From positions 1-48,575 of IMG/VR virus record IMGVR_UViG_2582581022_000007: a stretch of 48,575 nt of DNA, one strand, 5' to 3'. The notes under the pieces were generated by a model. It made no database searches. It had not been told where the DNA came from and worked only from the letters and a program-made list of their open reading frames with translations. Both the position numbers and the translations under genes were made by a program. Shown here in pieces: positions 2,247 to 23,256 of this stretch (positions are counted from its first letter, which is position 1; each line of letters starts with the position of its first letter). Source of the DNA: a virus (Duplodnaviria > Heunggongvirae > Uroviricota > Caudoviricetes).

Positions 2247-2607
2247 TGGCTAAATCCGCAGCAGAACGCAAAGCCGCGCAGCGGGCCCGCCAGGCTGAAT
2301 CTGGTAACCGCAAGCTTGAATTGCAACTCGATGAGCAGGAGCATGAGATGCTGGCGCGGAACTGCGCCGCCCGGCGCCCTGGTCGTGCGCCGCCCGGCGC
2401 CCTGGTCGTGCGCCGTATGAGATGAGCGAGTACATCGCGTTGCTTATCCGCCAGGATGATGCGCGAGTTCGTGGCCGTATCAAGTCAATCAGCACCAACC
2501 GCTGCGGCAAGTGCGGCGATGCGTTGCCGGTTAAGTCGTGTCCGTGCGATGGTGATTCGGCATGTTGGGTGACGCGTGGCTGGCATGAGACTAAATTATC
2601 AGTGTGA
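2246..2607 (+). pseudogene. phage gene split into two overlapping ORFs (2246..2425 and 2422..2607) by a 23-bp tandem duplication; C-terminal Cys-rich zinc-finger-like part
   Basis: Removing one 23-bp unit fuses both ORFs into one ~112-aa frame (..RRPGRAPYEMSEYIALLIRQDD..); current ORFs overlap in ATGA. Confidence 0.5.
2364..2409. repeat. perfect 23-bp tandem duplication (GCGCCGCCCGGCGCCCTGGTCGT x2, plus 6-bp partial third copy to 2415)
   Basis: Direct inspection: 2364-2386 identical to 2387-2409. Confidence 0.9.
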
Positions 2608-2616
2608 CATGTCACG
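2603..2616. promoter_or_regulatory. TGTGACATGTCAC palindrome, copy 1 of 3
   Basis: GTGACATGTCAC at 2604-2615 overlapping the stop codon; same 12-mer recurs at 4846-4857 and 23216-23227. Confidence 0.4.
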
Positions 2617-2637
2617 ATATCGACAATAAATTGCAAT

Positions 2638-2664
2638 GGCCGCCGACTATGGCGGCTTTGTTTT
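2638..2664 (+). terminator. rho-independent terminator-like hairpin upstream of terS
   Basis: GGCCGCC-gactat-GGCGGC hairpin followed by TTTGTTTT. Confidence 0.55.
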
Positions 2665-2710
2665 GCGTGTTACTATTACCAAAATGGTAATTATTACTTT
2701 GGTGGTAACA

Positions 2711-3340
2711 ATGCCCGCAGAACCTAAAGCACCAAAACGCAAATCAACGCAGTATAAGCCACTGACAGCGATGCAGGAGGCTTACGCGCAGGAATACACC
2801 AAATGCCCTGAGAATCAGACTCAGGCAGCGATTAACGCAGGATTCTCACCTAATACGGCAGCGGTAAAAGCCAGCGTCATGATGCGTGATGAGCGTATCC
2901 AGAAACGGATCGCCGAACTGATGGAAGAGCGCAACAAGCGTCTGCGTGTCAGTGCTGATTACGTGCTGCTCCGCCTGGTGGAAATCGACCAGATGGATGT
3001 GCTGGACATCCTGAATGAAGATGGCTCAATGAAGCCGATCAGCAGCTGGCCAAAGGTATGGCGTACTTCTCTCAGTGCTCTTGATATTGCAACGATAAAA
3101 ACCACGCAGGCATCACTGCAAAAAGATAATGGTGAAGCGGATCTGTCAGTTGAGGATGTAGAGCATATTCTCAAAAAAATAAAATGGCCGGACAAGGTGA
3201 AGAACCTTGAGCTTATCGGTAAGCACGTCGACGTCAATGCGTTCAAAGAGCGCCTGGAGGTTTCCGGTACCGTCACGATTGCCGACCGCATGGCGAAGGC
3301 CCGTCGTCGCGTGAAAGAACAGGCTGGTGGTGAAGAATGA
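2711..3340 (+). CDS. terminase small subunit
   Basis: Immediately upstream of and overlapping terL; N-terminal region (AMQEAYAQEY...QTQAAINAGFSPNTAAVKASVMMRDERIQKRI) resembles terminase small subunit HTH region; start chosen at ATG 2711 because the ORF-track start at 2636 would span the terminator hairpin. Confidence 0.7.
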   Translation: MPAEPKAPKRKSTQYKPLTAMQEAYAQEYTKCPENQTQAAINAGFSPNTAAVKASVMMRDERIQKRIAELMEERNKRLRVSADYVLLRLVEIDQMDVLDILNEDGSMKPISSWPKVWRTSLSALDIATIKTTQASLQKDNGEADLSVEDVEHILKKIKWPDKVKNLELIGKHVDVNAFKERLEVSGTVTIADRMAKARRRVKEQAGGEE

Positions 3341-4818
3341 CAGCTGCAGCCATGTCGCCGGAAGATCAGCTCGTCGAGGATATCGCATCGTTCACGTATG
3401 ACCCGCTGGGCTATTCGCTGTATGCGTTTCCGTGGGGCGAAGAGGGAACAGAGCTGGCGCATGCCACCGGTCCGCGAAAATGGCAGGCTGATGCATTCCG
3501 CGAGATACGGGATCACCTTCAGAATCCTGCTACCCGTCACCAGCCACTGATGCTGGCCCGCGCATCCGGTCACGGTATCGGAAAATCCGCTTTCATTTCG
3601 ATGCTGATCAACTGGGGCATGTCCACCTGCGAGGACTGCAAGGTGGTGGTGACCGCCAACACAGACAACCAGCTGCGCACCAAAACATGGCCTGAAATCA
3701 TCAAATGGTCGAACCTGGCTATCACGAAAGAATGGTTCACCTGCACCGCCACGGCGATGTACAGCAACGATCCCGGTCACGACAAACGCTGGCGCGCTGA
3801 CGCAATCCCATGGTCTGAGCACAACACAGAGGCGTTCGCCGGTCTGCACAACGAGCGTAAGCGCATCATCGTCGTATTCGACGAGGCGTCCAACATCGCC
3901 GATCTGGTGTGGGAGGTGGCCGAGGGTGCGCTGACGGACGAAGACACCGAAATCATCTGGGTGGCGTTCGGTAACCCGACGCGTAACACCGGGCGTTTCC
4001 GTGAATGCTTCCGAAAATACAAACACCGCTGGAAGTGCGCGCAGATAGACAGCCGTACTGTCGAAGGAACAAACAAGCAGCAGTTGCAGAAATGGGTGGA
4101 CGACTACGGCGAGGATAGCGACTTTGTGAAGGTCCGTGTGCGCGGGATCTTCCCTGATGCGTCTGAAAACCAGTTTATTCCATCCGGCCTGACGCAACCA
4201 GCTGTTGGCAGGGTTATCACTCCGGCACAGGTCCAGCACGCTGCTGTAGTTCTTGGCGTCGACCCGTCTCACCAGGGTAAAGACCCCGCAGTTATCTACC
4301 TGAGGCAGGGGCTGCACTGCAAAAAACTCGGGGAGTGGCAGCGTACCACTGACGATGTGCTGTTTGCGAAAGTGATCGCCGACTTTGAGGATCAGTACCA
4401 GGCTGATGCTGTGTTTATCGATTACGGCTATGGCACAGGTCTTAAATCTGTTGGCGATAACTGGGGGCGTAACTGGACGCTGATAATGTTCGGCAGCGGT
4501 ACGGCAGATCCTGAAATGGGCAATAAGCGCGGCGAGATGTACAAATCAGCCCGTGATGCGCTGAAGCTTGGTGCGCAACTTGATAGCCAGGATTTAGCCG
4601 ACGAGCTGAGCGCTCCTGAATACAAGGTCAGGCTCAAGGACAGCCGGAAGATTTTGCAGGACAAGGAAGAGGTGAAAGAATTGCTTGGCCGGTCACCTAA
4701 CAACGCCGACGCCTATGTGCTGACTTATGCTGCTCCGGTTACTAAAAAACAGTTCAATTATGGGCAGCAGCAAAGCCAGCAGGGTAAGGCTCTCACAGAG
4801 TACGATCCCTATGCATGA
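3337..4818 (+). CDS. terminase large subunit
   Basis: 493 aa; ATPase region (ARASGHGIGKSAF.. / IIVVFDEAS) followed by nuclease-like C-terminal half; position between terS and portal. Confidence 0.85.
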   Translation: MTAAAMSPEDQLVEDIASFTYDPLGYSLYAFPWGEEGTELAHATGPRKWQADAFREIRDHLQNPATRHQPLMLARASGHGIGKSAFISMLINWGMSTCEDCKVVVTANTDNQLRTKTWPEIIKWSNLAITKEWFTCTATAMYSNDPGHDKRWRADAIPWSEHNTEAFAGLHNERKRIIVVFDEASNIADLVWEVAEGALTDEDTEIIWVAFGNPTRNTGRFRECFRKYKHRWKCAQIDSRTVEGTNKQQLQKWVDDYGEDSDFVKVRVRGIFPDASENQFIPSGLTQPAVGRVITPAQVQHAAVVLGVDPSHQGKDPAVIYLRQGLHCKKLGEWQRTTDDVLFAKVIADFEDQYQADAVFIDYGYGTGLKSVGDNWGRNWTLIMFGSGTADPEMGNKRGEMYKSARDALKLGAQLDSQDLADELSAPEYKVRLKDSRKILQDKEEVKELLGRSPNNADAYVLTYAAPVTKKQFNYGQQQSQQGKALTEYDPYA

Positions 4819-4841
4819 AAAAGCCCGCGCATCGGCGGGCT
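4816..4841 (-). terminator. terminator hairpin between convergent terL and moron gene
   Basis: AGCCCGC-gcatc-GGCGGGCT stem-loop; on the minus strand it is followed by TTTTTCA. Confidence 0.55.
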
Positions 4842-4844
4842 GAT

Positions 4845-4858
4845 TGTGACATGTCACA
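4845..4858. promoter_or_regulatory. TGTGACATGTCACA palindrome, copy 2 (perfect 14-mer)
   Basis: Perfect 14-bp palindrome directly next to the terminator hairpin. Confidence 0.4.
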
Positions 4859-4861
4859 TCA

Positions 4862-5278
4862 TTATTTTTCGCTCATTATCTGCTTCAGAAGATAACCTTC
4901 CAGCATCCAGATTTTATTTACCGCATTTTCGCGGGAAATCTTTCGCCCGATCTCTGGGTCGAAGTTCTCAGGGCTGGCGCATGCACTCTCGCCGGTGACA
5001 GTGAATCCATTTCGCAGCACTAGAACGCAAAACGTAAGTACTGCAGCCTGCTCAGGAATGTTCAACTCCTCAACCTTTTCATCATCTGACTTTGTATCAG
5101 TCAAATATTGATGGCGACCTGCTATACCATCAGCAGCCGTGAAGTAATGCTCACTTACTATAACGTCGGCAATCCGTTGTGGCGTAATGCGCGGCGCGTT
5201 TAAGCCTTTAGCCTGAATTTCCTGCTCGATTGCCATGCAGGATGGTGCTGGAGATGCGGTTGATACCATGATTTTCAC
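4862..5278 (-). CDS. hypothetical protein (moron between terL and portal)
   Basis: 138-aa ORF on opposite strand to the structural operon, AAGGTGA RBS 5 nt before ATG, own terminator. Confidence 0.5.
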   Translation of the reverse strand: MKIMVSTASPAPSCMAIEQEIQAKGLNAPRITPQRIADVIVSEHYFTAADGIAGRHQYLTDTKSDDEKVEELNIPEQAAVLTFCVLVLRNGFTVTGESACASPENFDPEIGRKISRENAVNKIWMLEGYLLKQIMSEK

Positions 5279-5476
5279 CTTAAAAAAATGCCCACCGAAG
5301 TGGGAGAACTGGAAGCAAGGGTGCCTTCCATGGCTTTACGGGTTTACAGCGCAACGTCATCGCAATGGCGTTCTGCTGTAAAAGTGACGGTGGTCAGCAT
5401 CAAGGGAAACTGCCACCGCCAATAGCTACACAGCATCGTTCTTATGGGCGCTTCATCACGGTCCTAAGGCGTGATC

Positions 5477-5553
5477 TGGTGCGGCATGCAGGATTCGAAC
5501 CTGCGACCAACCGCTTAGAAGGCGGTTGCTCTATCCAACTGAGCTAATGCCAC
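5477..5553 (-). tRNA. tRNA-Arg (anticodon UCU)
   Basis: Reverse complement folds as cloverleaf: acceptor GTGGCAT/ATGCCGC, D-arm GCTC-AGTTGGAT-AGAGC, anticodon stem ACCGC/GCGGT with loop CTTCTAA, T-arm GCAGG-TTCGAAT-CCTGC, 3' ACCA. Confidence 0.85.
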
Positions 5554-6112
5554 AACGCTGAGAGCACTCCCATCTTTGCTAATGGGCTTCAAGAGCGGCA
5601 GGCCTACCACTTGGAATGCTCTCATCGTTGCATCCTCGTCTCTTCCGAGGTGTCACACCGTATCGCCACGATGGTGAGTCGTCATGTCCGTGCTTACCTG
5701 ACACTGGCTTGCACATTCCGGCTACCCGGTTGGGGAAGTAGCATCAAGGGAACCCATCCGGACCGCTGCGGCACATGTGCCATATGCCGTACTGCTACAC
5801 ATCTGAAAGCGCACTCCACCGTTTGGATTTAACGACCAGGCTCAAAGGTCATTCACTGAAGCGCGCTTTTAGTTGTGTGCGGAGATGATGCTCCGCTTAT
5901 CCACCGCCTTTACTTTTAAGCCCAATTTATTGCTGCGGTACTCCGGGCTACTGCACAAGCGGTTACATAACCACCTCCGCAATTCGTCAATTCAACACGC
6001 GAACTAATTACCTAAAAGGTAATATCTGATGTTATAAGTGTCAATAGCCTACGCTAAATAAATCATATGTGGTTAAATTGGTAATAATTTAATTGCGTAC
6101 GGAGCTATTGCT

Positions 6113-6319
6113 ATGTGTATCGGCAGCAAGCCATCAGTGCCAGCAGCACCAGAAGTACAGGCCGCGCCACAGGAGCAGGATGCAGCAGTTGTCAGTTCTC
6201 GTGACGATGAAGAGCGCCGCCGCCGTGCAGCTGCTGGTCGCAGTTCTACTCTGCTGACTGGTGCGCAGGGCGACACCTCAACCGCAAACACCAGCGGTAA
6301 AACGCTGCTCGGTCAGTAA
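6113..6319 (+). CDS. small hypothetical protein upstream of portal (68 aa)
   Basis: ATG with GGAG RBS 8 nt upstream; ends 15 nt before portal start; low-complexity Ala/Arg-rich product, so could be spurious. Confidence 0.35.
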   Translation: MCIGSKPSVPAAPEVQAAPQEQDAAVVSSRDDEERRRRAAAGRSSTLLTGAQGDTSTANTSGKTLLGQ

Positions 6320-6333
6320 CGGAGTAGGCAGAG

Positions 6334-8004
6334 ATGGCGGAAACCGAAAAAGAGCGTCTGCTGAAGCAGCTCGCACAGCTGAAGAATGAGCGCACATCGT
6401 TCGAGTCGCACTGGCGTGACCTGAGCGACTTCATCAATCCGCGCGGCTCTCGCTTTCTGACGTCTGATGTAAACCGTGATGATCGTCGAAACACCAAGAT
6501 TGTTGATCCTACTGGCTCAATGGCTCAGCGCATTTTGTCCAGCGGCATGATGTCAGGCATCACCAGCCCGGCACGTCCATGGTTCAAACTGGCAACGCCA
6601 GACCCTGACATGATGGATTATGGTCCGGTTAAAGTCTGGCTGGAAGTCGTGCAGCGCCGCATGAACGAAGTGTTCAACAAGTCAAACCTGTATCAGTCAT
6701 TGCCTGTCATGTACGCCAGCCTTGGCACTTTCGGCACCGCCGCAATGGCTGTGCTCGAAGATGACCAGGACGTGATCCGCACAATGCCTTTCCCGATTGG
6801 CAGCTACTACCTGGCTAACAGCCCGCGCGGCAGCGTCGACACATCCTTCCGCCAGTTCTCCATGACTGTTCGTCAGCTTGTGCAGGAATTCGGTCTGGAT
6901 AACGTCAGCTCATCGGTGCAGGGGATGTGGCAAAACGGCACGTATGAAACGTGGATCGAGGTTAACCACTGCATTACTCCAAACGTTAACCGTGATACCG
7001 GGAAGATGGACAGCAAGAACAAGCCGTTCCGCTCTGTGTACTTCGAGAGTGGCGGCGATTCCGACAAGCTGCTGCGTGAGTCCGGCTTCGATGAATTCCC
7101 GATCCTGGCGCCGCGCTGGGAAGTTAACGGCGAAGACGTTTACGCATCTTCCTGCCCTGGCATGCTGGCACTCGGTCAGGTGAAAGCCCTTCAGGTTGAG
7201 CAGAAGCGTAAAGCTCAGCTGATCGATAAGGCTACTAACCCGCCGATGGTCGCACCTACCTCGCTAAAAACACAGCGTGTTTCCCTGCTGCCTGGTGATG
7301 TGACGTACCTCGACGTGTTGAACGGTCAGGACGGTTTCAAACCTGCATACCTGGTAAACCCGAATACTGCAGATCTGCTGGCTGATATTCAGGATACCCG
7401 CCAGACCATCAACAGCGCCTACTTCGTCGACCTCTTCATGATGCTGCAAAACATCAACACCCGCTCTATGCCGGTGGAAGCAGTGATCGAGATGAAGGAA
7501 GAGAAACTTCTGATGCTTGGCCCGGTGCTGGAGCGCCTGAACGACGAAGCACTTAATCCGCTTATTGACCGCGTTTTCTCCATCATGGCGCGCAAGAACA
7601 TGCTTCCTCCACCGCCGGACGTTATGCAGGGTATGCCGCTGCGTATCGAATACATCTCCGTTATGGCGCAGGCTCAGAAATCTATCGGACTCACCAGCCT
7701 TTCGCAGACCGTTGGCTTCATTGGCCAACTCGCACAGCTCAAACCTGAAGCGCTCGACAAGCTCGACGTTGATCAGGCTATCGACGCGTTCTCCGAAATG
7801 TCCGGCGTATCGCCAACCGTCATCATTCCGCAGGAGCAGGTTCAGGGCATTCGTGAAGAGCGCGCCAAACAGGCACAAGCCGCACAGGCAATGGCAATGG
7901 GGCAGGCCGTAGCGCAGGGAGCCAAGACTCTCAGCGAGACGCAAACCACTGACCCGAGCGCATTAACCGCTATCGCTAATGCAGCAGGAGCACCGCAGCA
8001 ATGA
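6334..8004 (+). CDS. portal (head-to-tail connector) protein, T7-like
   Basis: 556 aa directly after terminase; Q/A-rich C-terminal tail (AKQAQAAQAMAMGQAVAQGAK) like podovirus connector proteins. Confidence 0.75.
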   Translation: MAETEKERLLKQLAQLKNERTSFESHWRDLSDFINPRGSRFLTSDVNRDDRRNTKIVDPTGSMAQRILSSGMMSGITSPARPWFKLATPDPDMMDYGPVKVWLEVVQRRMNEVFNKSNLYQSLPVMYASLGTFGTAAMAVLEDDQDVIRTMPFPIGSYYLANSPRGSVDTSFRQFSMTVRQLVQEFGLDNVSSSVQGMWQNGTYETWIEVNHCITPNVNRDTGKMDSKNKPFRSVYFESGGDSDKLLRESGFDEFPILAPRWEVNGEDVYASSCPGMLALGQVKALQVEQKRKAQLIDKATNPPMVAPTSLKTQRVSLLPGDVTYLDVLNGQDGFKPAYLVNPNTADLLADIQDTRQTINSAYFVDLFMMLQNINTRSMPVEAVIEMKEEKLLMLGPVLERLNDEALNPLIDRVFSIMARKNMLPPPPDVMQGMPLRIEYISVMAQAQKSIGLTSLSQTVGFIGQLAQLKPEALDKLDVDQAIDAFSEMSGVSPTVIIPQEQVQGIREERAKQAQAAQAMAMGQAVAQGAKTLSETQTTDPSALTAIANAAGAPQQ

Positions 8005-8300
8005 CGGATATCGATGACGAAGCCCGCAAAGCAGAGCTTGACGCTAAACAGCAACTTCTGGCGCAGCGCGACATTGACGACATTCAGTTTGTCATGGGTA
8101 GCGAGCAGGGCCGCCGCGTGATCTGGTCACTGCTTGAGAAAGGTCAGGTGTTCGGTGCTTGCTTCAACGTAGATCCACACATCACAGCATTCAACGAAGG
8201 GCAGCGCAACCTGGCTCTGGTTCTTTTTCAGCGCGTCATGGCGCACTGCCCCGATCAGTATCTGAAGATGGCCGCAGAGGCCGGAGAGGACAATTTATGA
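8001..8300 (+). CDS. hypothetical head-assembly protein
   Basis: ATGA overlap with portal stop; in structural operon. Confidence 0.5.
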   Translation: MTDIDDEARKAELDAKQQLLAQRDIDDIQFVMGSEQGRRVIWSLLEKGQVFGACFNVDPHITAFNEGQRNLALVLFQRVMAHCPDQYLKMAAEAGEDNL

Positions 8301-8620
8301 CACAGGTACAAACGCAGCGCGTCGTGCGCCTCGATGGTTCCAGCCAGGTAGTTGAGGTTCCGGATCCTGCTCCGGCAGTAATTGGCGCTCCAACCGCGAC
8401 TGATTACGGTGGCGTAAAACTGGGCGCGACAATCGCGGCCCCGGCTGCAATGACGGCCACCAAGGATACAGCCTCATCGGCATCAGATGTTGCTGGTCTG
8501 CTCACCGACCATAACGACCTGGTTACGAAATATAACGCACTGCTGGATGACACCACAGCAGTGCGCACCACGCTGGCATCAGTTCTGGCGCAACTGAAAG
8601 CCAAAACGATCCCGGTTTAA
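8297..8620 (+). CDS. hypothetical structural protein
   Basis: ATG 8297 with GGAGAGGA RBS, ATGA overlap with previous stop; the longer track ORF from 8159 would overlap the upstream gene. Confidence 0.5.
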   Translation: MTQVQTQRVVRLDGSSQVVEVPDPAPAVIGAPTATDYGGVKLGATIAAPAAMTATKDTASSASDVAGLLTDHNDLVTKYNALLDDTTAVRTTLASVLAQLKAKTIPV

Positions 8621-8631
8621 GGAGATAACCA

Positions 8632-9339
8632 ATGAATTTGTTTGAACGTCTTCTGCATCGTCGCCTTTGCAACGAACAACCTGCTGATGGTGGCGCAGCT
8701 CCTGCTGCATCTGAACCTGCTGCATCAACTGGGGATAATCCGGCACCAGCTGGCGATCCGGCTAAATCGGAAGGCGATAAGTCACAGCCAGGCGCTGAAG
8801 GTGACAAACCTCAGGAAGAAAAACCTGCTGATGGTGATAAGCCAGAAGAGAAAAAGCCTGGCGAAGAAAAAGAGCAGAAGCAGGAAGGCGCGCCGGAGAA
8901 ATATGAGTTCAAACCAGCCGAAGGACAGGAGCTTGATGCTGCTGCTCTTGAGCAGTTCGAGCCTATCGCCCGTGAACTGAACCTGACCAATGATCAGGCG
9001 CAGAAGATGGTCGACCTGTACGGCACCAAGATCATGCCAATGGTCCAGCAGCAGCAGGCAGAAGCCTGGCAGAAGACCACCGAGCAGTGGGCTGCTGACG
9101 TGAAGGCAGACAAAGAGATCGGCGGCGACAAGCTCACCGGTAACCTGAGCGCTGCACAGCGTGCTCTTGCTCAGTTCGGTACGCCTGAACTGAAAGAATA
9201 TCTGGAAGGCACTGGCCTGGGTAATCACCCTGAACTGGTCAAGGCGTTCGTGAAAATCGGTAAAGCCATGTCGGAAGACGGCATGGTCGATGGCAGTAAT
9301 CAAGGCCAGCGTAGTGCGGCCGAAGTGCTTTATGGCTAA
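8632..9339 (+). CDS. scaffolding protein (putative)
   Basis: Acidic low-complexity protein (GDKSQPGAEGDKPQEEKPADGDKPEEKKPGEEKEQKQEG) immediately upstream of major capsid gene. Confidence 0.6.
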   Translation: MNLFERLLHRRLCNEQPADGGAAPAASEPAASTGDNPAPAGDPAKSEGDKSQPGAEGDKPQEEKPADGDKPEEKKPGEEKEQKQEGAPEKYEFKPAEGQELDAAALEQFEPIARELNLTNDQAQKMVDLYGTKIMPMVQQQQAEAWQKTTEQWAADVKADKEIGGDKLTGNLSAAQRALAQFGTPELKEYLEGTGLGNHPELVKAFVKIGKAMSEDGMVDGSNQGQRSAAEVLYG

Positions 9340-9356
9340 TAAGAGAGGATATAACC

Positions 9357-10343
9357 ATGGCTGTTAAAGGCGTAAATGCGCTGACGCTGGCTGACTGGGC
9401 TAAGCGTACTGATCCAAACGGGAAGGTCGATAAGATCGTCGAACTCCTTTCCCAGACCAACGAAATCCTGACGGACATGATGTTCGTTGAGGGTAACCTG
9501 CCAACCGGCCACCGTACTACCGTGCGCTCTGGTTTGCCATCTGCTACCTGGCGTTTGCTTAACTACGGCGTGCAGCCAAGCAAATCAACTACAGTACAGG
9601 TAACCGACACCTGCGGGATGCTGGAAACTTATGCCGAAGTTGACAAGTCACTGGCAGATCTGAACGGCAACACCGCTGAATTCCGTCTGTCTGAAGACCG
9701 TGCGTTCATCGAAGGCATGAACCAGCAGATGGCTCAGACTCTGTTCTATGGCGATACAAGTGTTAACCCTCAGCAGTTCATGGGGCTTGCTTCTCGTTAT
9801 TCCAGCAAATCTGCCGGTAATGGGCAGAACATTATTGATGCTGGCGGTACCGGTACCGACAACACTTCTATCTGGCTGGTTGTGTGGGGAGAAAACACGG
9901 TTCACGGTATTTTCCCGAAAGGTCAGAAAGCAGGATTACAGACTCAGAATCTGGGCGAACAGACGCTTATCGATGCTGCTGGTGGTAAATACCAGGGATA
10001 CCGTACCCACTACAAGTGGGATAACGGACTGGCCCTGCGTGACTGGCGCTACGTTGTTCGCATCGCCAACATCGATGTGAGCGATCTGTCTGTTCCAGCT
10101 TCTGCTGCAAACATCGTCACGATGATGGTTAAAGCGCTGCACCGCGTTCCTAACCTGAAGATGGGTCGCGCGGCTTTCTACATGAACCGCACTGTTGCCC
10201 AGGCACTCGACCTGCAATCTCTGGATAAAGCTTCTCTGGCTCTGTCCGTCAAAGAGACTGAGGGCGAATGGTGGACCACTTTCCGTGGCATCCCAATCCG
10301 TGAAACTGACGCAATTCTGGAAACAGAAGCGCGCGTTGTTTAA
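9357..10343 (+). CDS. major capsid protein
   Basis: 328 aa, strong RBS (AGAGAGGATATAACC-ATG), position after scaffold, followed by stem-loop. Confidence 0.7.
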   Translation: MAVKGVNALTLADWAKRTDPNGKVDKIVELLSQTNEILTDMMFVEGNLPTGHRTTVRSGLPSATWRLLNYGVQPSKSTTVQVTDTCGMLETYAEVDKSLADLNGNTAEFRLSEDRAFIEGMNQQMAQTLFYGDTSVNPQQFMGLASRYSSKSAGNGQNIIDAGGTGTDNTSIWLVVWGENTVHGIFPKGQKAGLQTQNLGEQTLIDAAGGKYQGYRTHYKWDNGLALRDWRYVVRIANIDVSDLSVPASAANIVTMMVKALHRVPNLKMGRAAFYMNRTVAQALDLQSLDKASLALSVKETEGEWWTTFRGIPIRETDAILETEARVV

Positions 10344-10359
10344 CGCCTGTCATTAACTA

Positions 10360-10379
10360 ATGGGCCTTAACCGGCCCAT
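10360..10379 (+). other. RNA stem-loop directly after capsid gene (ATGGGCC-ttaacc-GGCCCAT)
   Basis: Perfect 7-bp inverted repeat; no T-run, so more likely processing or attenuation structure than full terminator. Confidence 0.4.
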
Positions 10380-10835: not shown

Positions 10836-10845
10836 GGGGATATCG

Positions 10846-15111: not shown

Positions 15112-15653
15112 TGTGCAGCCCGGCTATCGCTCTCGCTGGCGCCAGTGTCGCTTTAAGTGGCGTTTCAGCATACAACCAGTACCAGCAAGGTAAGTATTCG
15201 TCTGCTGTTGCCGAGCAAAATGCAGAGGTGGCGACGGCACAGGCACAGGATTCTATCAACCGTGGCAACGCTCAGGCTGATGAGGTTCGTCGCCGTAATC
15301 GTCAGGCCGCTGGCACCCAGGCGGCAACCATGGGCGCTACAGGTGCAGATCTATCCACTGGTGGATCGCTGGATATCTTTGGTGATACGGCTCAGTTTGG
15401 TGCACTGGATGCGCTGACAACGGTCAATAACGCTCAGCGTGAAGCGTATGGCTATCAGGTTCAGGCAGAAAACTACAAAGCCCAGGCCAGTGCTTCGCGT
15501 AAGCAGGGGAATATGGGCGCATTTACCACACTGCTGACTGCTCCGCTTAATGCGTATGGTGCTTATAGGATTGGTGGTGGTGAATGGAACCCGTTCACAC
15601 AAAGCACCCCAGCACCAATTAGTGTCGCTATCGGTACACCAACCGGTCGATAA
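15111..15653 (+). CDS. internal virion protein (putative), Ala/Gln-rich
   Basis: 180 aa, in same operon. Confidence 0.4.
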   Translation: MCSPAIALAGASVALSGVSAYNQYQQGKYSSAVAEQNAEVATAQAQDSINRGNAQADEVRRRNRQAAGTQAATMGATGADLSTGGSLDIFGDTAQFGALDALTTVNNAQREAYGYQVQAENYKAQASASRKQGNMGAFTTLLTAPLNAYGAYRIGGGEWNPFTQSTPAPISVAIGTPTGR

Positions 15654-15665
15654 GGAGACATAGAA

Positions 15666-18287
15666 ATGCCAACAGTACCAACAGTCACCGGTCGTCAGGT
15701 CGAAAGCAGGGGGTTTCAGTCTCCTGGTTTTCAGGCATTAGATCAGCCAAACATTGGTGATGCTATCGTCGACGCTGGCAGCAAAGCCATCAACGTATTT
15801 GGAGAGGCCAAGCAACGGGCAAATGTGGCACTTACCCAAGAGGCAACTCTTCAACTGAATGCGGTTGGCAACGATCTGCTAAATAACCCTGATTCAGGAT
15901 TCATGAATCTGCAAGGGAAGAACGCGATCGGCAAGTGGCAGGAGTACGTGCAGCAGTTTGATTCTCAGGCGCAGAGCATTGCAGCAAGCCTGCCGGATGA
16001 GCAGGCGCGAAATGCGTTTCTTCAGCAGGCACAGCAGCAGAGAATCCAGTTCAAGACGACCGCTGTTCGCCATGAAGTTGGGCAGGTGCGTCAGTACGAA
16101 GCAGGTATGCAGGAGGGAACGTTACGTTCGCTGGCACAGCAGGCGATTTCTCCTGGTCTGTTTGTTCCTGCATTGATGAATGCTCGTAATTCTATTATCG
16201 CTTATGGGAAAGCCCACGGACAGAGCGATGAGGAAATAGAGTCTAATTTCGTGCAGTGGCGTGAGCAGGCCGCCAACCGCGCCAGCGAAGCATGGTATAC
16301 ACCAACCTATCAGCAAATCATGGGGCCGGAAGGTAAGATCGAAGTTACCGACACTCCGAGCGAATCGCAGCTTTTTTCCGCGATGATCTGGCAGGAATCC
16401 GGAGGTAATCAGTATGGCAAAGACGGTTTACCACTGGTATCTCCGAAAGGTGCAGTAGGGGTGGCGCAGGTGATGGAGGATACGGGGCCGGAAGCAGCAC
16501 GACTGGCTGGCGTACCGTGGGATCGTGATAAGTGGCTGAACGATACGCGCTACAATGCGAAGCTTGGTCAAGCCTACTTCGGCGCGCAGATGAAGAAGTA
16601 TGACAATAATCCTGTACTGGCGGTGGCGGCGTATAACGCTGGGCCAGGTGCGGTTGATGGATGGATAAAGCAGTTTGGCGACCCGCGTACTGGTGCGGTG
16701 AGCAATGAGCAATTCGCTGCGGCAATCCCTTATGATGAAACTCGCAACTATGTCGCGAAAGTAACCGGCAGCGCTCCGGCGATACCAGGAACTGCTACGA
16801 TGGAAAACCTCATCAATCAGCCTTTCTGGGATGCGATGAGTCCGCAGAACAAATCAGCGATGATGAGCAAAGTGGCAGGCATGTACGATATGCAAGCCGC
16901 AGCTGGTCGCGTGTCATTGCAAAGCCGCATGCAGGATGACCTTGCTAAATTAGAGTCAGGACAGAAAGTTAACCCGATCTCGGAACGTGAGTGGCTGGCG
17001 GTCATGCCGTTGCAGGCAAGCCCGGCGGAGCGCATTCAGATGCGCGAGTCATTCCAGCAATATCAGCAGGCGATGACGCTGCAACCGGTATATCAATCCA
17101 TTGTTCAGGGGTCTGCGCAGCAGGGTATCGCTGCGGTGCAGTCTATGGTGCCGCAGGAAGATGACCCTGACTTTAAATTTAAGCAGAGCTTGTACGCAAC
17201 TGCGCAGGCCAAACTGAATCAGGTAATTAAAGCGCGCGAGTCCGACCCGGGTACGTGGCTACAAGCCAACTCGCCGGTGGTGAAAAACGCCTTTGAGCAA
17301 TATCAGAACAACCAGGCATCAGGTGAATATCTGGTTTCCCGTCTGCAAGCAGAGAAAGACCGCCTTGGTATCAATAGTAAGAAGGTACTTCCTGACGCCA
17401 TGGTTAACAACCTCATTTCTCAGATCGATAACAATAAAGAATCAAGCGTAACCGCCATTCAGTCGGTGGCGCAGTCGTTCGGAAAATACTCCGATCAGGT
17501 TATGCAGCAGGTGCAGAAAAGCGCATATCCAGCGCTTCAAGTCATCATGGCGACCAATAATCCTCGGGCCGCCAACGCGCTCTGGCAAAACCGCAGTGTT
17601 AAAACTTCTGACCTGCGCGGCAGCTTTGAGAAGACAGACGCCGACAGCGCTGATTCATCTTGGAATGACCAGGCAAAAGATTTTGCCGGGACGATGGTTG
17701 TACAGCCTGGCGGGTCTGCCGTGTGGAACAACTTCAACGATCAGGGTAAACGCCTGACCTACACCTATATGCAGCGCGGCATGTCGCCTGGCGATGCAGC
17801 AAAACAGGCATATCAGGACGTTCTCGGTGAGCAGTATCAGACCAATGGCACCTGGCGTATGCCTAACAACGCCGGGCATGATATTCGTGACGTTAATGAC
17901 GGCGCTAACGTGTACCTGAAGAATCTGTCAGCAGATCAGATCATGCCGCTAATCGGTGACGCCCGTCTGCCGGATGAGGTTAACCGAGAGCAAAGTATTT
18001 CCCGCATTCGTGATAACGCACAGTGGGTAACCAACAGCGACGAAACAGGGCTTACGCTGATGATGAATGGTCTGTTGATCAACAATGCGCAGGGGCAGCC
18101 GATTACAGTTTCGTTTGCTGACCTCGCGAAACTTGGCGCTGGCAACCGTACAACTTGGAACAGCCTGACCAAATTAGTGCAGACGCCGGTTAAGTACACT
18201 CCGGGCCAGTCGAAGAATTACACGGTAGAAAGTCAGCGTGAAAATCTGATCAACATTATCCAGAACGGCCAGCAGACGGGACGATAA
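15666..18287 (+). CDS. internal virion/ejection protein with lytic transglycosylase (SLT) domain
   Basis: SLT motifs IWQESGGNQ ... GAVGVAQVM ... AVAAYNAGPGAV in an 873-aa protein. Confidence 0.8.
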   Translation: MPTVPTVTGRQVESRGFQSPGFQALDQPNIGDAIVDAGSKAINVFGEAKQRANVALTQEATLQLNAVGNDLLNNPDSGFMNLQGKNAIGKWQEYVQQFDSQAQSIAASLPDEQARNAFLQQAQQQRIQFKTTAVRHEVGQVRQYEAGMQEGTLRSLAQQAISPGLFVPALMNARNSIIAYGKAHGQSDEEIESNFVQWREQAANRASEAWYTPTYQQIMGPEGKIEVTDTPSESQLFSAMIWQESGGNQYGKDGLPLVSPKGAVGVAQVMEDTGPEAARLAGVPWDRDKWLNDTRYNAKLGQAYFGAQMKKYDNNPVLAVAAYNAGPGAVDGWIKQFGDPRTGAVSNEQFAAAIPYDETRNYVAKVTGSAPAIPGTATMENLINQPFWDAMSPQNKSAMMSKVAGMYDMQAAAGRVSLQSRMQDDLAKLESGQKVNPISEREWLAVMPLQASPAERIQMRESFQQYQQAMTLQPVYQSIVQGSAQQGIAAVQSMVPQEDDPDFKFKQSLYATAQAKLNQVIKARESDPGTWLQANSPVVKNAFEQYQNNQASGEYLVSRLQAEKDRLGINSKKVLPDAMVNNLISQIDNNKESSVTAIQSVAQSFGKYSDQVMQQVQKSAYPALQVIMATNNPRAANALWQNRSVKTSDLRGSFEKTDADSADSSWNDQAKDFAGTMVVQPGGSAVWNNFNDQGKRLTYTYMQRGMSPGDAAKQAYQDVLGEQYQTNGTWRMPNNAGHDIRDVNDGANVYLKNLSADQIMPLIGDARLPDEVNREQSISRIRDNAQWVTNSDETGLTLMMNGLLINNAQGQPITVSFADLAKLGAGNRTTWNSLTKLVQTPVKYTPGQSKNYTVESQRENLINIIQNGQQTGR

Positions 18288-18288
18288 T

Positions 18289-19995
18289 ATGCCGATTTAT
18301 ACAGATGACCCAGGGCAGGGAATAAACCAGCCGCTGTCGAATGCCCCATCAGGGCTTGGTGAATCGCTGCTTTCCTCCCTGAAAGAGGGATTCAAAGAGG
18401 GGCCTGTTGTGTCAGGTTATCGGTTTTCTCAAGCCGACCAACTGGCAAATGACCCAAATTCGACCATCGTCAGTAAATCTGACGCGGAAACACGCCTTAA
18501 AGAGTACGGCGTTAAAAGTATCAATGTGCCTGACGGCGGTGTTACACAAACATTCCTCGACCATGTGATCAGCGAGCGCAGAGAAACTCTGGCGAAGCAG
18601 CAGATCGCCATGTCTGCCCCGTCTGGATGGGTTGCCACTCCGCTTAACTTTGCCGCAAACCTTGCAGGATCAATGGCTGATCCCGGTAACGTGGCTTTGG
18701 CGCTGGTCCCGTTCGGTGGAGAAGCAAAGGCGGCAACTATGCTTGGGCGCTTCGGTGAGCGTCTTTCCACTGGTACTCGGCTTGGCGCTGCTCAGGCCAT
18801 TGCCACCGTACCTCTGACGGCACAGGCAGCAGCGGCAGAAGGAGATGACTTCACATATGGCAACGCGCTGGAGAGCACCTTCTTTAACACCATCGCTGGC
18901 GGGTTGATGCACGCTGGCGGCGGGCTGATATCGGATGTGGTACGCTCCCGCAGGGCTGGTACTGTTGAAAATCCTGCTGCCTCGCAAGACGTTCAGCCTG
19001 TCGCTGATGCGCAGCCAACACCGGTGTTTACGCCTGACAATATACCGGCAGGCGTAAATATTCCTGAGTCCGGCACCAACGCCGATCTGTCAGCGGCAAT
19101 CGCGCGGGATGCGGAAGCGTATGCCTACAGCCGCGCCTATGATGATGTTGTGCCGGAATATATGGTAAGGCAGCAGGAGCTACAGACAGGGAGCATTGAC
19201 AACGTTGCGGATCTGCGAACTGAGTTGGTGACCAACAACAGGCAAAGTGAGGCACTTGACGCAACTCTGGCCCAGCGCACGACCGATTACCAGGCGCAAC
19301 GCATGAAATTCAAAGCAGCACGAGCCAGGGCGCAGCGAGATATTGAGGTTGAGAAAGACGCCATCACCGCGCGTAACCAGGAAATTACGCAACAGATTGA
19401 ACGTAATGCTGCAGCAGAGCAGGCAAAAGGCAGAGAGGCGCAACTGTCCCGCAAAGAGATACCTGACGACTTGGCGCCGTTGATAGCCCAGCGTGCGCAA
19501 CAGATTCGCGAAAGCATGCAGATGTCGCCTGTGGCTGGCGCAGTGCGCACTGCGTCGGCAGCGGTTCGTGAGGCTGACTGGAGCGTTAACCAGCAGGCGT
19601 ATCGAGGCTCACTGGCGCACATGATGGAAGGGCGCTCGCCTGATATTGAGCCATTCTATGATCTGCACAAACCAGCTCTACGCGAGCGTGCTATCCAGCG
19701 CATACAAAATCCGGTGCGGCAGGCTGATGAAGGTTCCCGCGCCGTCAGTGAAAGTGCGGATCGTGTGTGGCAGGATACGCAGAATGTTGACCATGAAATA
19801 ACAGCGGCTACCGCTGATCTGGAAAATGAATTTAATATCAGTGATGCGCTGCTGAACGACATTGCCACTGACAATCCTGACCTGGCTGCGTCGATGCGGG
19901 AGAATATTGCAGCGATCCGTGCAGAGGCCAGTGACGACTCTATCGGAAAAGCGTACCGCGCTTTCGCCGCCTGTCTGATTAACCGGGGGCTGTAA
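18289..19995 (+). CDS. internal virion/ejection protein (putative)
   Basis: 568 aa, abuts SLT-protein gene. Confidence 0.45.
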   Translation: MPIYTDDPGQGINQPLSNAPSGLGESLLSSLKEGFKEGPVVSGYRFSQADQLANDPNSTIVSKSDAETRLKEYGVKSINVPDGGVTQTFLDHVISERRETLAKQQIAMSAPSGWVATPLNFAANLAGSMADPGNVALALVPFGGEAKAATMLGRFGERLSTGTRLGAAQAIATVPLTAQAAAAEGDDFTYGNALESTFFNTIAGGLMHAGGGLISDVVRSRRAGTVENPAASQDVQPVADAQPTPVFTPDNIPAGVNIPESGTNADLSAAIARDAEAYAYSRAYDDVVPEYMVRQQELQTGSIDNVADLRTELVTNNRQSEALDATLAQRTTDYQAQRMKFKAARARAQRDIEVEKDAITARNQEITQQIERNAAAEQAKGREAQLSRKEIPDDLAPLIAQRAQQIRESMQMSPVAGAVRTASAAVREADWSVNQQAYRGSLAHMMEGRSPDIEPFYDLHKPALRERAIQRIQNPVRQADEGSRAVSESADRVWQDTQNVDHEITAATADLENEFNISDALLNDIATDNPDLAASMRENIAAIRAEASDDSIGKAYRAFAACLINRGL

Positions 19996-22541
19996 TGGCT
20001 AACGAATTTCTTACGCAATGCGAAATGACCGTCAATGCAGCTGCCGGGCGCAAGCTGTCTGATGACGAAATGGAATCTTTGGTGCGTGACATGAACGACA
20101 CCACAAACCGGATACTGGCTGGTAATGAAGCACTGACGCTGGAAGAAGCAGCGATGCGCGCCGCGCAGGAGCTTGGTAATCGCGAGCAACTGGCTAAAGT
20201 CATTGAGGCACGGAATAAGGCCATTAATACCCGTATTGCAGCTCAGCGCCTTGGCGAGCTTCGCCGGACTTGGAAAGACCGTCCTGACATCGGTCTGGAG
20301 GCTATTCTTGTCGGACGTAATGACGCGCGCACTGGTTCCCGCCGCTCGGTATCCTCTGAGGTTGCCCAACTGCGCGGTAAGTATCATGCTGGTATCAACT
20401 ATGATTTCGACCAGGCAGGACTGGTTAAATTTATTGCCAGTGGCAGCAATGACCGCGAGATAGCCGACGCCATGTGGCGCATTGGCCGCGGACAGAAAAC
20501 GGACGGTATGACGCCGCAATCAGTCAGTGCCGCTAAGATCATCATGAAGTGGCAGGAAACTGCGCGCGTGGATGAAAACCGTGCTGGTGCCTGGATTGGT
20601 AAGATGCCTGGCTACATCGTCCGGCAGTCGCATGACATACTGAAAATCCGTGCCGCCGGGTATGAATCCTGGCGCAATACCATTCTGCCGCGGCTGGATG
20701 ATGCCACCTTTGACGGGATCACAGACCGAGAAGGGTTCCTGCGTGGTGTCTACGACGGCCTTGCCTCCGGTGTGCACCTTACCTCTGAAAAACCAGACTG
20801 GATGAATGGCTTTAAGGGATCGGCGAATGCGGCCAAACGAGCCAGCCAGGAGCGGGTGTTGCACTTCAAAGACGGTGTTAACTGGCACGAATACAACGAG
20901 CAATTCGGAACTGGCAGCCTGCGTGAGGCAGTATTCGGCGGACTGAACAGCGCGGCGCGCACTACGGGCATGATGCGCGTGCTTGGTACCAACCCGCAGA
21001 ACATGTTCAAGTACCTGACAGACACCATCGCAAAAGACGTGAGCAAGCAGAGCAACCCTTCGGCGCTGGCTGATTTCATGACCAAGGTGCGCCGCCTGAA
21101 TCGCACGGTTATGCCACAGGTTGATGGATCGCTGAATATCCCCGGCAGTGTTGGCTGGGCTAATGCCTCAGCCAACGTGCGCGGCTGGCTGCGTATGAGT
21201 CAGCTTGGAGGAGCGGTCATTTCATCTTTTAACGACGTGCCAATCTCGGCGACAGAAATGCGGTATCAGGGCCAGAACTTCATGCAGGCGCTGACCGGCG
21301 CGATGAAGGGGCGCTTTTCCCGCTACACCAGTGATGAGCAGAAGGAGATCCTTTCATCTATCGGCGTTTACTCCGACACGATGACGCAGGAAATCATCCG
21401 TCGCATGTCTGGCGACGACAGCATGAGCGGCAAGATGGGGCGTGCGCAGCAGCTATTCTTCAAATACAACCTTATGAACTTCTGGACAGAATCCGGGCGT
21501 AACAGCAACGCCATGATGATAACAAACTGGCTGGCGAAGAACGCCGATCAGCAATTTTCTGCACTGCCGGAGGACCTGCGCCGCGTTCTGGACCTGCACG
21601 GCATAGGTGACGCTGAATGGAATATCTACCGCAGCATGGACATGGCAGACAGCGAAGGCCGCAAATTCATGACGACCAGCGGAATTCGTGGCGTTCCGGA
21701 TGAGGTGATAGCCTCATATGTTGAAGGAAAAGGCATGAAGGTCACCGAGCGATCTATTGCCGATGCGAGAGACACGCTGGAAAGCCAACTTCGTGGGTAT
21801 ATTCTTGACCGACTAAACATCGCTATGTCAGAGCCGGGAGATCGTACGCAGGCGTTTATGAAGATGGGCACTGTACCAGGAACAGTAGCTGGGGAGGCAA
21901 TACGTTTCGCTGGTCAGTACAAATCGTTCACTGCGAGTTTCATGCAGAACGTGCTTGGACGTGAGGTATTCGGGCGCGGTTATACTCCCGCTGGCCTGGG
22001 TGAATCAAAAACAGGATCGCTGACGAATGCGCTGCTGCGTAACGGAAAAGGTGCATTCTTGGGGGCGGCAAACCTGTTCGTCTGGGCAACCATGTTTGGC
22101 TATATCTCTATGCAGTCGAAACTATTGCTTAAGGGGCAGACGCCGCGTCCGGCAGATGCCAAGACATTCCTCGCAGCCGCATCTCAGGGCGGCGGCCTAG
22201 GCATCTTGGGCGACTTCATGTTTGGCGAAGTCAATCGCATGGGTGCTGGTCCAGTGACATCATTGATGGGGCCAGCCGCGTCGAACGCTGATAGCATTAT
22301 CACGCTGTTCCAGCAGACAACGCGCGGCGATGCAGACCTGGGTGACTGGTATCGCACCGCGCTGGACAATACGCCTTTCCTTAACGTGTTCTGGCTGCGC
22401 ACAGCAATGAATGGTTTAATATTGAACCGTATACAGGATGCTCTTGACCCTGGATCACTGGAGCGCTATCAGCGCCGTGTTGAACGGGAGCAGGGTAACG
22501 ACTTTCTGATCCCACCATCGCAGTTCATGCTAGGGAAGTAA
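19995..22541 (+). CDS. internal virion/ejection protein (putative)
   Basis: 848 aa; ATGG overlap with previous stop. Confidence 0.45.
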   Translation: MANEFLTQCEMTVNAAAGRKLSDDEMESLVRDMNDTTNRILAGNEALTLEEAAMRAAQELGNREQLAKVIEARNKAINTRIAAQRLGELRRTWKDRPDIGLEAILVGRNDARTGSRRSVSSEVAQLRGKYHAGINYDFDQAGLVKFIASGSNDREIADAMWRIGRGQKTDGMTPQSVSAAKIIMKWQETARVDENRAGAWIGKMPGYIVRQSHDILKIRAAGYESWRNTILPRLDDATFDGITDREGFLRGVYDGLASGVHLTSEKPDWMNGFKGSANAAKRASQERVLHFKDGVNWHEYNEQFGTGSLREAVFGGLNSAARTTGMMRVLGTNPQNMFKYLTDTIAKDVSKQSNPSALADFMTKVRRLNRTVMPQVDGSLNIPGSVGWANASANVRGWLRMSQLGGAVISSFNDVPISATEMRYQGQNFMQALTGAMKGRFSRYTSDEQKEILSSIGVYSDTMTQEIIRRMSGDDSMSGKMGRAQQLFFKYNLMNFWTESGRNSNAMMITNWLAKNADQQFSALPEDLRRVLDLHGIGDAEWNIYRSMDMADSEGRKFMTTSGIRGVPDEVIASYVEGKGMKVTERSIADARDTLESQLRGYILDRLNIAMSEPGDRTQAFMKMGTVPGTVAGEAIRFAGQYKSFTASFMQNVLGREVFGRGYTPAGLGESKTGSLTNALLRNGKGAFLGAANLFVWATMFGYISMQSKLLLKGQTPRPADAKTFLAAASQGGGLGILGDFMFGEVNRMGAGPVTSLMGPAASNADSIITLFQQTTRGDADLGDWYRTALDNTPFLNVFWLRTAMNGLILNRIQDALDPGSLERYQRRVEREQGNDFLIPPSQFMLGK

Positions 22542-22542
22542 T

Positions 22543-22914
22543 ATGAACAGAATTATATTAATGACTCTTCTTATTTTTTTTGTTGGAAAAGCTTCTGCTG
22601 ATACTACATCACCTTTAATGATTCAGCCTAAAAATGGAGAAACATTGGAGGATTCTAAAAAGCATACAATGGAATACTTTGGATGCATAAAAGGGCAGGC
22701 TGTAAAGTATGCCAAGACAGGAGAAAGTGTTGATTCCATATCAAAAGCTTCGGTTGTGTCATGCGAGTCATATATACCAATGATCGCCGAGTCGAATATA
22801 TATTATTTAAACTCTTCGCAAGATGGTAAGCGGCAATTTACAGAAAGGCTAAAATCTGATGGTGAGAGATTAGCCACAAAATTTGCCATGGATGAGAAGA
22901 TTAAAAATAAATAG
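22543..22914 (+). CDS. secreted protein with N-terminal signal peptide (moron)
   Basis: MNRIILMTLLIFFVGKASA signal-like N-terminus; markedly AT-rich relative to flanking structural genes. Confidence 0.55.
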   Translation: MNRIILMTLLIFFVGKASADTTSPLMIQPKNGETLEDSKKHTMEYFGCIKGQAVKYAKTGESVDSISKASVVSCESYIPMIAESNIYYLNSSQDGKRQFTERLKSDGERLATKFAMDEKIKNK

Positions 22915-22922
22915 GTGACCAC

Positions 22923-23219
22923 ATGCAAGCTATTGGTTTCATTGTTTACATAGTTGTTGGTCTTTTTCAGTTGGCTGCGATCATGGCTGGTCTTGAATCG
23001 TGGTGGGGACTGCACTGGATAGTGGCCGCACCCATTGCTTTCATCGTTAGTTATATCCCTTTGGTCGGTTCCATTGTTGGAATGGTTGGCGCTGTCGACG
23101 TATGGCGTTGGGAATGGTGGCAGGCAGGGCTTCTTTTCTTTGGCGGCCTGGTTTTTGCTATTGCGTGCGGGGGGATGTCTTCGTTCTTCGAATGGCTATC
23201 CTTCAGGAAAAGAGCGTGA
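22923..23219 (+). CDS. small inner-membrane protein (moron; possible superinfection-exclusion function)
   Basis: 98 aa, mostly hydrophobic with Trp-rich loops; stop codon embedded in palindrome copy 3. Confidence 0.5.
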   Translation: MQAIGFIVYIVVGLFQLAAIMAGLESWWGLHWIVAAPIAFIVSYIPLVGSIVGMVGAVDVWRWEWWQAGLLFFGGLVFAIACGGMSSFFEWLSFRKRA

Positions 23220-23228
23220 CATGTCACA
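23215..23228. promoter_or_regulatory. GTGACATGTCAC palindrome, copy 3
   Basis: 12-mer at 23216-23227 overlapping TGA stop and abutting terminator. Confidence 0.4.
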
Positions 23229-23256
23229 AAGGCCGCCGAAGCGGCCTTAATTTTTT
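23229..23256 (+). terminator. rho-independent terminator
   Basis: AAGGCCGC-cgaa-GCGGCCTT hairpin followed by AATTTTTT. Confidence 0.7.

Follow-up and report, generated by a model that had tools for sequence, protein, structure and literature searches.

A conserved 12-base palindrome at transcription-unit ends of epsilon15-like prophages, a candidate operator for the phrog_536 protein family

The 48,575-base stretch of viral DNA analysed here in full (IMG/VR record IMGVR_UViG_2582581022_000007; henceforth the window) carries an epsilon15-like (Uetakevirus) prophage whose late half occupies bases 1 to about 29,500, and in this late half a short palindrome, GTGACATGTCAC, stands three times at the end of a transcription unit. 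The element is real and strongly constrained; neither a description nor an annotation of it came to light. Most plausibly it is an operator, read by a candidate ribbon-helix-helix regulator, and doubles as a junction at which gene cassettes are exchanged. On comparative evidence we put at roughly even chances the proposal that the general form of the palindrome, GTGAC-NN-GTCAC, is the recognition site of the protein encoded by phrog_536, the family of epsilon15 gp49 and N15 gp46; that the palindrome also acts as an insulator is a proposal in which we place less confidence.

Exact copies of GTGACATGTCAC are found at 2604-2615, 4846-4857 and 23216-23227, and none appeared in any of 100 dinucleotide-preserving shuffles of the window. 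Isolated half-sites, in contrast to the full palindrome, occur about as often as expected (14 GTGACA and 10 TGTCAC, against 12.8 expected). The perfect 14-mer TGTGACATGTCACA exists only at 4845-4858, sites 1 and 3 each being off by one flanking base. The sites, the terminators beside them and the gene of the candidate binding protein are as follows.

2246-2607, plus strand: phrog_536 gene, encoding the candidate binding protein; split here into open reading frames (ORFs) 2225-2425 and 2422-2607.
2604-2615: site 1, GTGACATGTCAC, at the end of the early-right operon, upstream of terS.
2638-2667, plus strand: intrinsic terminator after site 1, by scan score; hairpin 2638-2657, GGCCGCCGACTATGGCGGCT then TTGTTTTG.
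4814-4841, minus strand: intrinsic terminator at site 2, by scan score; hairpin 4841-4822, AGCCCGCCGATGCGCGGGCT then TTTTT.
4846-4857: site 2, GTGACATGTCAC, flanked by the hairpin on the terL side and by the 3' terminus of a minus-strand cargo gene.
23216-23227: site 3, GTGACATGTCAC, at the end of the long structural operon.
23229-23258, plus strand: intrinsic terminator after site 3, by scan score; hairpin 23229-23248, AAGGCCGCCGAAGCGGCCTT then AATTTTTT.

Site 1 contains the TGA stop codon (2605-2607) of ORF 2422-2607, which belongs to the phrog_536 (gp49-like) gene, and site 3 contains the TGA stop codon (23217-23219) of ORF 22923-23219; at site 2, the minus-strand ORF 4862-5278 ends 4 nt from the 12-mer. 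The terminator hairpin begins 22 nt past site 1 and 1 nt past site 3, and at site 2 the terminator lies 4 nt from the palindrome, directly downstream for leftward transcription. Read along the terminator, the order is thus the same at all three sites: stop codon, palindrome, hairpin and T run. The site-1 terminator is kept in relatives and is carried as a terminator in the epsilon15 annotation; the site-2 hairpin is likewise kept across relatives, and at site 3 the hairpin sequence differs among relatives with the palindrome unchanged. A preliminary description of this DNA had listed the three copies, the one at 4846 as a perfect 14-mer, with a GC-rich hairpin beside each and stop codons under two of them, and all of this is borne out, the three hairpins scoring as intrinsic terminators. 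Its further half-copy over the Rz stop codon has to be dropped. The sequence in question, GTGACATGGCAT at 29446, is present and does overlap that stop, but it is a match with two mismatches, of which 1.8 per window are expected by chance, and it is missing at that position in phiV10; we do not count it as a site.

The three copies are conserved in place. Epsilon15 has exactly three 12-mers at orthologous positions (2142, 19517 and 39612, the last being the counterpart of site 1), phiV10 has them at 2262, 19493 and 39101, again with the last as site 1 counterpart and there with one mismatch, and the motif occupies the same three places in about 200 related contigs, so that the comparison with orthologous positions proposed in the preliminary description comes out in favour of the element. 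Nearly all of 80 viral contigs whose TerL is 81-99% identical have a copy before terS and another after terL, the distances ranging from -686 to -1918 and from +29 to +1153, respectively. The site-3 copy is present in 57 of 65 contigs that encode a gp17-like protein. Counted over unique contexts, the palindrome holds 1.90-1.95 bits per position compared with 0.30-1.32 in the flanks; the terminator hairpins drift in sequence among relatives, whereas the 12-mer does not. A caveat applies to bacterial genomes as a background: scanned as the perfect 14-mer, the form used for all bacterial and viral genome scans, the motif occurs, among the matches listed, in all phyla at chance level (one genome per bacterial species), and its enrichment is specific to certain temperate phages. 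The palindrome is missing from the annotation of the epsilon15 GenBank record (AY150271.2), which lists Rep operators, IHF sites, RNase III sites and terminators, and the phiV10 record annotates only the neighbouring terminators. The exact 12-mer was not found in the literature searched, and searches for SPC32H, N15 and GTGAC/GTCAC gave nothing on the element.

The grammar of the motif is strict. When spacings of 0 to 7 bp between GTGAC and GTCAC were scanned in 2.7 Mb of related loci, 349 of 353 occurrences had a spacing of 2 bp and a single one had 3 bp. The two central bases are variable (AT 282, AG/CT 46, GT/AC 17, CC/GG 9 and GC 2), with both AG and CT centres found at site 1, and the half-sites are invariant; invariant half-sites around a free centre suggest a symmetric dimer that reads the half-sites. 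This favours the 'different dimeric protein' which the preliminary description had put forward as one of two possibilities, and a candidate ribbon-helix-helix protein is in fact encoded beside site 1. A short palindrome, conserved half-sites and a predicted ribbon-helix-helix protein encoded nearby are what is expected of a ribbon-helix-helix operator.

Other identities fit less well. The perfect 14-mer shares the TGTGA and TCACA arms of a CRP site; however, a CRP/FNR-type site (TGTGA-N6-TCACA, 22-bp) has a spacer of 6 bp rather than 4, sites 1 and 3 do not keep the outer T and A, and the conserved core is GTGAC/GTCAC. The palindrome is therefore not a CRP site, in agreement with the preliminary description. 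The matS consensus is the 13-bp GTGACRNYGTCAC with a 3-bp centre (PMC6907758), from which the 2-bp centre of nearly every occurrence sets the palindrome apart. The epsilon15 Rep operator, ATTACC-N5-GGTAAT (AY150271.2), is a different motif, and the flanks of the palindrome do not fit the LexA box CTGT-N8-ACAG, of which the window holds no strict match; true LexA boxes are found in cassettes beside site 1 of relatives. By definition the element is not a Cluster A stoperator either, there being three palindromic copies of a motif other than the Rep operator; a functional analogy with those stoperators is possible. Nor is it a general companion of terminators, since only 26 of the 118 contexts listed from the viral scan have a terminator within 90 nt.

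The candidate partner is a small protein. Epsilon15 gp49 has 112 residues, is encoded by the last gene of the early-right operon, belongs to PHROG 536 ('transcriptional regulator') and has no Pfam family; the sources call members of the family hypothetical or, without evidence, transcriptional regulators. Four parts can be told apart in its AlphaFold model (pLDDT 72): a helix of basic character, an extended segment, a pair of helices and a C-terminal region rich in cysteine. We read the predicted structure as a ribbon-helix-helix fold with an N-terminal basic helix, and the cysteine-rich region as a putative zinc ribbon. In the N-terminal helix, R8, K9, Q12, R13 and R15 vary little or not at all across the family. 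Homology between gp49 and MatP was not detectable (hhalign probability 0.1). In the window, a perfect 23-bp tandem duplication at 2363-2408 (TGCGCCGCCCGGCGCCCTGGTCG twice) frameshifts the gp49-like gene, and epsilon15 and close relatives have a single copy of the unit. We reject a role for gp49 in place of the P2/186 late activator, since the Yersinia phage has an Ogr homolog, and a role as a Q-type late regulator, since the lambdoid carriers have a Q-like gene of their own.

The linkage between gene and site extends across unrelated phages. The phrog_536 gene is rare, being encoded in 152 of 50,697 phage records; among the matches listed, it lies within the fetched stretch in 31 of 120 viral loci that were chosen solely for the 14-mer. 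In six unrelated backgrounds its stop codon lies over a GTGAC-NN-GTCAC site and in a seventh directly beside one, with proteins down to 39% identical. The offset between stop and site is zero in 65 of 79 epsilon15-like cases. The same overlap is seen in the lambdoid group, whose copy of the gene precedes ninB, RusA and a Q-like gene, in N15 gene 46 and phiKO2 gp45 (GTGACTGGTCAC), in Pantoea AH07 gp31 (GTGACCTGTCAC) and in gp13 of the Yersinia P2-like phage vB_YenM_31.17 (GTGACGCGTCAC); in ZF40, the site starts 3 nt after the stop of gp22. With 0.03-0.05 sites expected per genome, three phages have three sites each: ZF40, where all are perfect and two flank the immunity region; N15, where there are exactly three, all with a TG/CA centre; and Vibrio phage K308, where one lies 30 nt upstream of terS and the phrog_536 homolog is 39% identical. 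Among lambdoid loci that share the Q-like gene, the site is present in 26 of 26 with the phrog_536 gene and in 0 of 28 without it (571 kb), except for one coding coincidence. Two recurrent coincidences of this kind were set aside. One is GTGACATGTCAC encoding V-T-C-H-T-C in the zinc-finger motif of Q-like antiterminators (3472 in Escherichia phage LMessi, locus L348, and 3605 in locus L056); the other is GTGACGTGTCAC in a conserved late gene of lambdoid phages (loci L477-L539, about +9.5 kb).

Some arrangements outside the epsilon15-like phages are recorded here in their own right. The ZF40 (L347) sites at 5125 and 7622 bracket the cI-cro-cII region about 2.5 kb apart, inside annotated genes, and similar pairs 2.1-3.3 kb apart are seen in five further loci (L045, L047, L058, L066 and L069); such pairing hints at looping, or at roadblocks on both early operons. 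K308 (L476) has, at 19491 and besides its three 12-bp sites, one 13-mer that fits the true matS consensus (GTGACACCGTCAC). In a P2-like prophage of the Serratia/Yersinia type (L115, 4437-4473), the palindrome forms the core of a terminator stem (cgcctGTGACATGTCACaggcg then T8) downstream of the portal gene.

From the conservation, the positions, the linkage of gene and site and the predicted fold, we infer the following mechanism. The phrog_536 protein would bind the 12-mer as a dimer. One site always travels with the phrog_536 gene, over its stop codon, and in epsilon15-like phages two more stand at the 3' ends of other transcription units, a few bases ahead of the terminators. The bound dimer could serve as a boundary element that roadblocks or slows RNA polymerase ahead of the terminators, so that there would be less read-through from the early operon into the packaging genes at site 1, from the leftward tRNA and cargo transcript into terL at site 2, and from the structural operon into the convergent ant region at site 3. 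By analogy with lacI and its O3 operator, the phrog_536 gene is probably autoregulated through the site over its stop codon. The 12-mer, together with the neighbouring hairpin, may also offer an identity patch at which cassettes exchange.

Several observations weigh against this proposal. The beta-strand residues of the protein family vary while the half-sites do not, and the gp49-like gene of the window is broken while all three of its sites are intact. Some ZF40 and N15 sites lie inside annotated genes and not at boundaries. Proximity to a terminator, at 22% of the listed 14-mer contexts, is about six-fold above that of random positions (75 of 2,000) and is not universal, so a role in termination or insulation would not be general. 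The complete lambdoid genome of LMessi lacks a phrog_536 gene and yet holds two perfect sites. One of these is the coding coincidence inside the Q-like gene; the other, beside cro at a mosaic junction, looks non-coding, which suggests that a site can persist, or work, without the gene in cis. Finally, the related contigs are largely not independent samples.

The palindrome marks the edges of exchanged DNA. The cassettes next to sites 2 and 3 of the window are given below.

4862-5278, minus strand: site-2 cargo gene, Pfam Phage_gp49_66; the cassette extends from the palindrome edge to about 5265-5279.
22543-23219, plus strand: variable cassette left of site 3, placed between the end of the gp17-like gene and the palindrome; ORFs 22543-22914 and 22923-23219 (phrog_3075).

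Across relatives, site 2 is abutted by at least 15 unrelated minus-strand cargo genes, and at least eight unrelated upstream ORFs end in or at site 3; epsilon15 gp18, for example, is unrelated to the window ORF at this site. Relatives carry insertions directly past the palindrome of site 1, either cassettes equipped with a promoter and a LexA box of their own or mini-ORFs. Aligned with relatives, the window shows 35 homology blocks that end exactly at 4857, the edge of site 2, 61 breakpoints at 2615-2617 (site 1) and 21 blocks that begin at 23207-23218 (site 3). Homology thus breaks exactly at the palindrome edge at site 2, and within 1-9 bases at sites 1 and 3, beside swapped cargo genes, which strengthens the earlier remark that the sites sit where the operon is interrupted by inserted or opposite-strand genes. 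Breakpoints would fall at the palindrome edge because the 12-mer and hairpin are the only sequence common to otherwise unrelated neighbours. A matching motif at the other boundary of the cassettes was looked for and none was found.

The site-1 cassettes in L159, L160, L184, L187 and other loci open with a TTGACT or TTGACG promoter and a consensus LexA box, for instance TACTGTATATATATACAGTA, and the same arrangement of promoter and LexA box is found in a Yersinia P2-like phage (L471, about 10040). The genes in these cassettes look like SOS-controlled genes and are perhaps antirepressors.

Four other explanations were weighed against an operator of the phrog_536 protein. The exchange of cassettes could be all there is to the element: the palindrome and the conserved hairpin would then be a recombination linker without any protein partner, either an identity patch for homologous or relaxed (RecT/Red-type) swaps or the target of an unknown site-specific insertion, and it would persist as every successful exchange regenerates it. 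The breakpoints at all three sites point this way, as do more than 15 cargo genes at site 2 and at least eight at site 3, the RecT and exonuclease encoded by epsilon15, and a homology between L024 and LMessi that begins at the palindrome in a phage without the phrog_536 gene. We nevertheless consider a linker alone unlikely. Twelve bases are very short for recombination, a passive patch is not expected to hold 1.9 bits per position while the adjacent hairpins drift, and the absence of a matching motif at the other cassette boundary fits it poorly; it also leaves unexplained the association with the stop codon of one gene family in seven unrelated phage types and the triple occurrence in N15, ZF40 and K308, in part within genes. 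As a secondary consequence, exchange at the palindrome is compatible with an operator. A Q-like late switch would instead make the palindrome part of a promoter, with GTGACA as its -35 element and a short transcript that ends at the terminator until gp49, encoded just upstream as lambda Q is, loads for read-through. At 2604-2632, GTGACA-17 bp-TAAATT does score as a promoter with the terminator beginning 6 nt downstream, the lambdoid group has GTGACA-17 bp-TAACAT followed by a hairpin, and the phrog_536 gene is the last before the packaging genes in epsilon15-like phages. Yet sites 2 and 3 lack a -10 element whichever way they are read, and among epsilon15-like variants, and in ZF40, N15 and the Yersinia phage, the -10 is not kept. 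A Rep-operator promoter already stands in front of terS, and the lambdoid group and the Yersinia phage have regulators of their own, a Q-like protein and an Ogr homolog, respectively; we regard this switch as highly improbable.

The remaining two concern what would read the palindrome. As RNA, it could form a small hairpin before the terminator that recruits an antiterminator in the manner of nut/boxB, tunes termination or protects the 3' end, and a perfect palindrome yields the same RNA in both directions. The preliminary description had named an RNA-level element as its second possibility, and the constant order of stop, palindrome, hairpin and T run, the terminator stem of L115, the place of the palindrome just after cro in lambdoid contexts (the position of nutR in lambda) and the arginine-rich N-terminal helix of the family are in line with it. 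The fold itself argues otherwise: at -2.9 kcal/mol and z = 0.19 against shuffles, the hairpin is weak, it is not in the minimum-energy fold of site 3, and without a T run it does not qualify as an intrinsic terminator, as the adjacent hairpins do. The presumed loop is the most variable part and occurs in both orientations, and the stem is invariant without compensatory changes, which does not match a nut/boxB-type element, an RNA hairpin with a conserved loop and a covarying stem. Moreover, 22 nt separate site 1 from its terminator, and often far more where a cassette has come in between, the asymmetric centre of the N15 sites is not consistently oriented with transcription, and antitermination of the leftward transcript at site 2 would drive antisense RNA into terL. 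An RNA element is, in our estimate, distinctly unlikely. Alternatively, the reader could be a host protein of Enterobacterales or Vibrionales, by which phages would tether or silence their DNA; MatP, if it accepted a 12-bp variant of matS, or some other dimeric regulator would be an example. The half-sites are identical to those of matS, all site-bearing phages infect orders that have MatP, and LMessi retains sites without the phage gene. However, the 2-bp spacing is nearly exclusive, the 14-mer matches listed show no enrichment in bacterial genomes outside prophage contexts, and a host factor leaves unexplained both the linkage to the phrog_536 stop codon and the presence of the site in all lambdoid loci with the gene and none without it. 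This we hold to be very unlikely.

Read as an operator of the phrog_536 protein, the palindrome has several relatives among known systems. In E. coli, the Ter macrodomain is organised by MatP/matS. The half-sites recognised by MatP, itself a ribbon-helix-helix protein, are the same but stand 3 bp apart (PMC6907758); the matS site is 13 bp long with a 3-bp centre, whereas the phage site has 12 bp with a 2-bp centre and stands at operon ends instead of in a chromosomal domain, and the phage protein is small with a cysteine-rich C-terminal region. In placement, there is a likeness to stoperators, short sites scattered over the genome of a temperate phage, where they lie at gene boundaries and often cover stop codons, and which are thought to halt elongating RNA polymerase and silence read-through. 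They were reportedly described in mycobacteriophage L5 and other Cluster A phages by Brown et al. in 1997. Stoperators are asymmetric, orientation-dependent, present in 20-30 copies per genome and bound by a helix-turn-helix immunity repressor, whereas the three copies described here are palindromic and of a motif other than the Rep operator. The lacI gene and its O3 operator, on which Abo et al. are said to have reported in 2000, likewise have an operator at the 3' end of the regulator's own gene, where the bound protein can truncate its own transcript. The two sites also share a 7+7 layout (TGTGAGC/GCTCACA and TGTGACA/TGTCACA), a resemblance in sequence that is probably coincidental; LacI has the LacI/GalR fold, and we have no evidence here for non-stop mRNA or tagging. 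As with lambda Q/qut and N/nut, a cis site shortly before a terminator is inherited along with the gene of its regulator, and in epsilon15-like phages the phrog_536 gene lies at the end of the early operon. In contrast to the lambda systems, neither a promoter nor a pause signal is conserved, the hairpin is weak as RNA, and phages that bear the module also have their own Q-like or Ogr regulators.

The surrounding prophage is epsilon15-like. Bases 1 to about 29,500 begin in the last part of the early-right operon and continue through terS, terL and the portal gene to structural, tailspike and lysis genes. Rep-type operators (TTACC-N5-GGTAA) are found at 2676, 6008, 24435 and 24818, the first of them being as follows.

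2676-2690, no strand assigned: Rep-type operator before terS, TTACCAAAATGGTAA; a motif distinct from the palindrome.

The four stand before terS, the gp3/portal operon and the tailspike region, matching the epsilon15 annotation, and each late operon seems to be directly repressed. In the variable region between terL and the portal operon, a tRNA-Arg gene (anticodon TCT) lies at 5477-5553 on the minus strand and after it, on that strand, come a terminator (5304-5291) and next the cargo gene; a tRNA-Arg is annotated here in related phages, too. Past the integrase gene (29881-31071), the DNA from 31000 to 48575 is not an epsilon15-like early region. It has a low GC content of 36-44%, encodes a NikA-like mobilisation protein and a TrbL/VirB6 protein, and carries a three-gene ABC-3C system at 39515-43701 (CTD1, MComp1 and an ABC/SMC-type ATPase) and a second ATPase, of AAA_21 type, at 45919-47385 on the minus strand. 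This part looks like a separate island beside the end of the prophage.

Altogether, the element is best read as a ribbon-helix-helix operator of a known kind in an unusual placement. If the pairing of protein and site is real, it would tell what a protein family does that has members in N15, phiKO2, epsilon15 and phiV10, all of them model phages, add to the ribbon-helix-helix family a new specificity closely like that of MatP/matS, and provide a testable account of how cargo genes expressed from the prophage are insulated from late operons. It would also supply a defined sequence for cassette swaps, so that the linker idea in modular phage evolution, long a matter of debate, could be tested directly in podoviruses of E. 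coli or Salmonella, which are easy to work with. In epsilon15-like prophages, the 12-mer is a practical landmark for cargo slots. More tentatively, the regulator and its operator may form a widespread, undescribed module in temperate phages of Enterobacterales and Vibrio, whose extra copies would act as protein-dependent insulators and as fixed junctions for moron cassettes; if this is true, the module would give a molecular basis to the 'linker' sequences of phage mosaicism.

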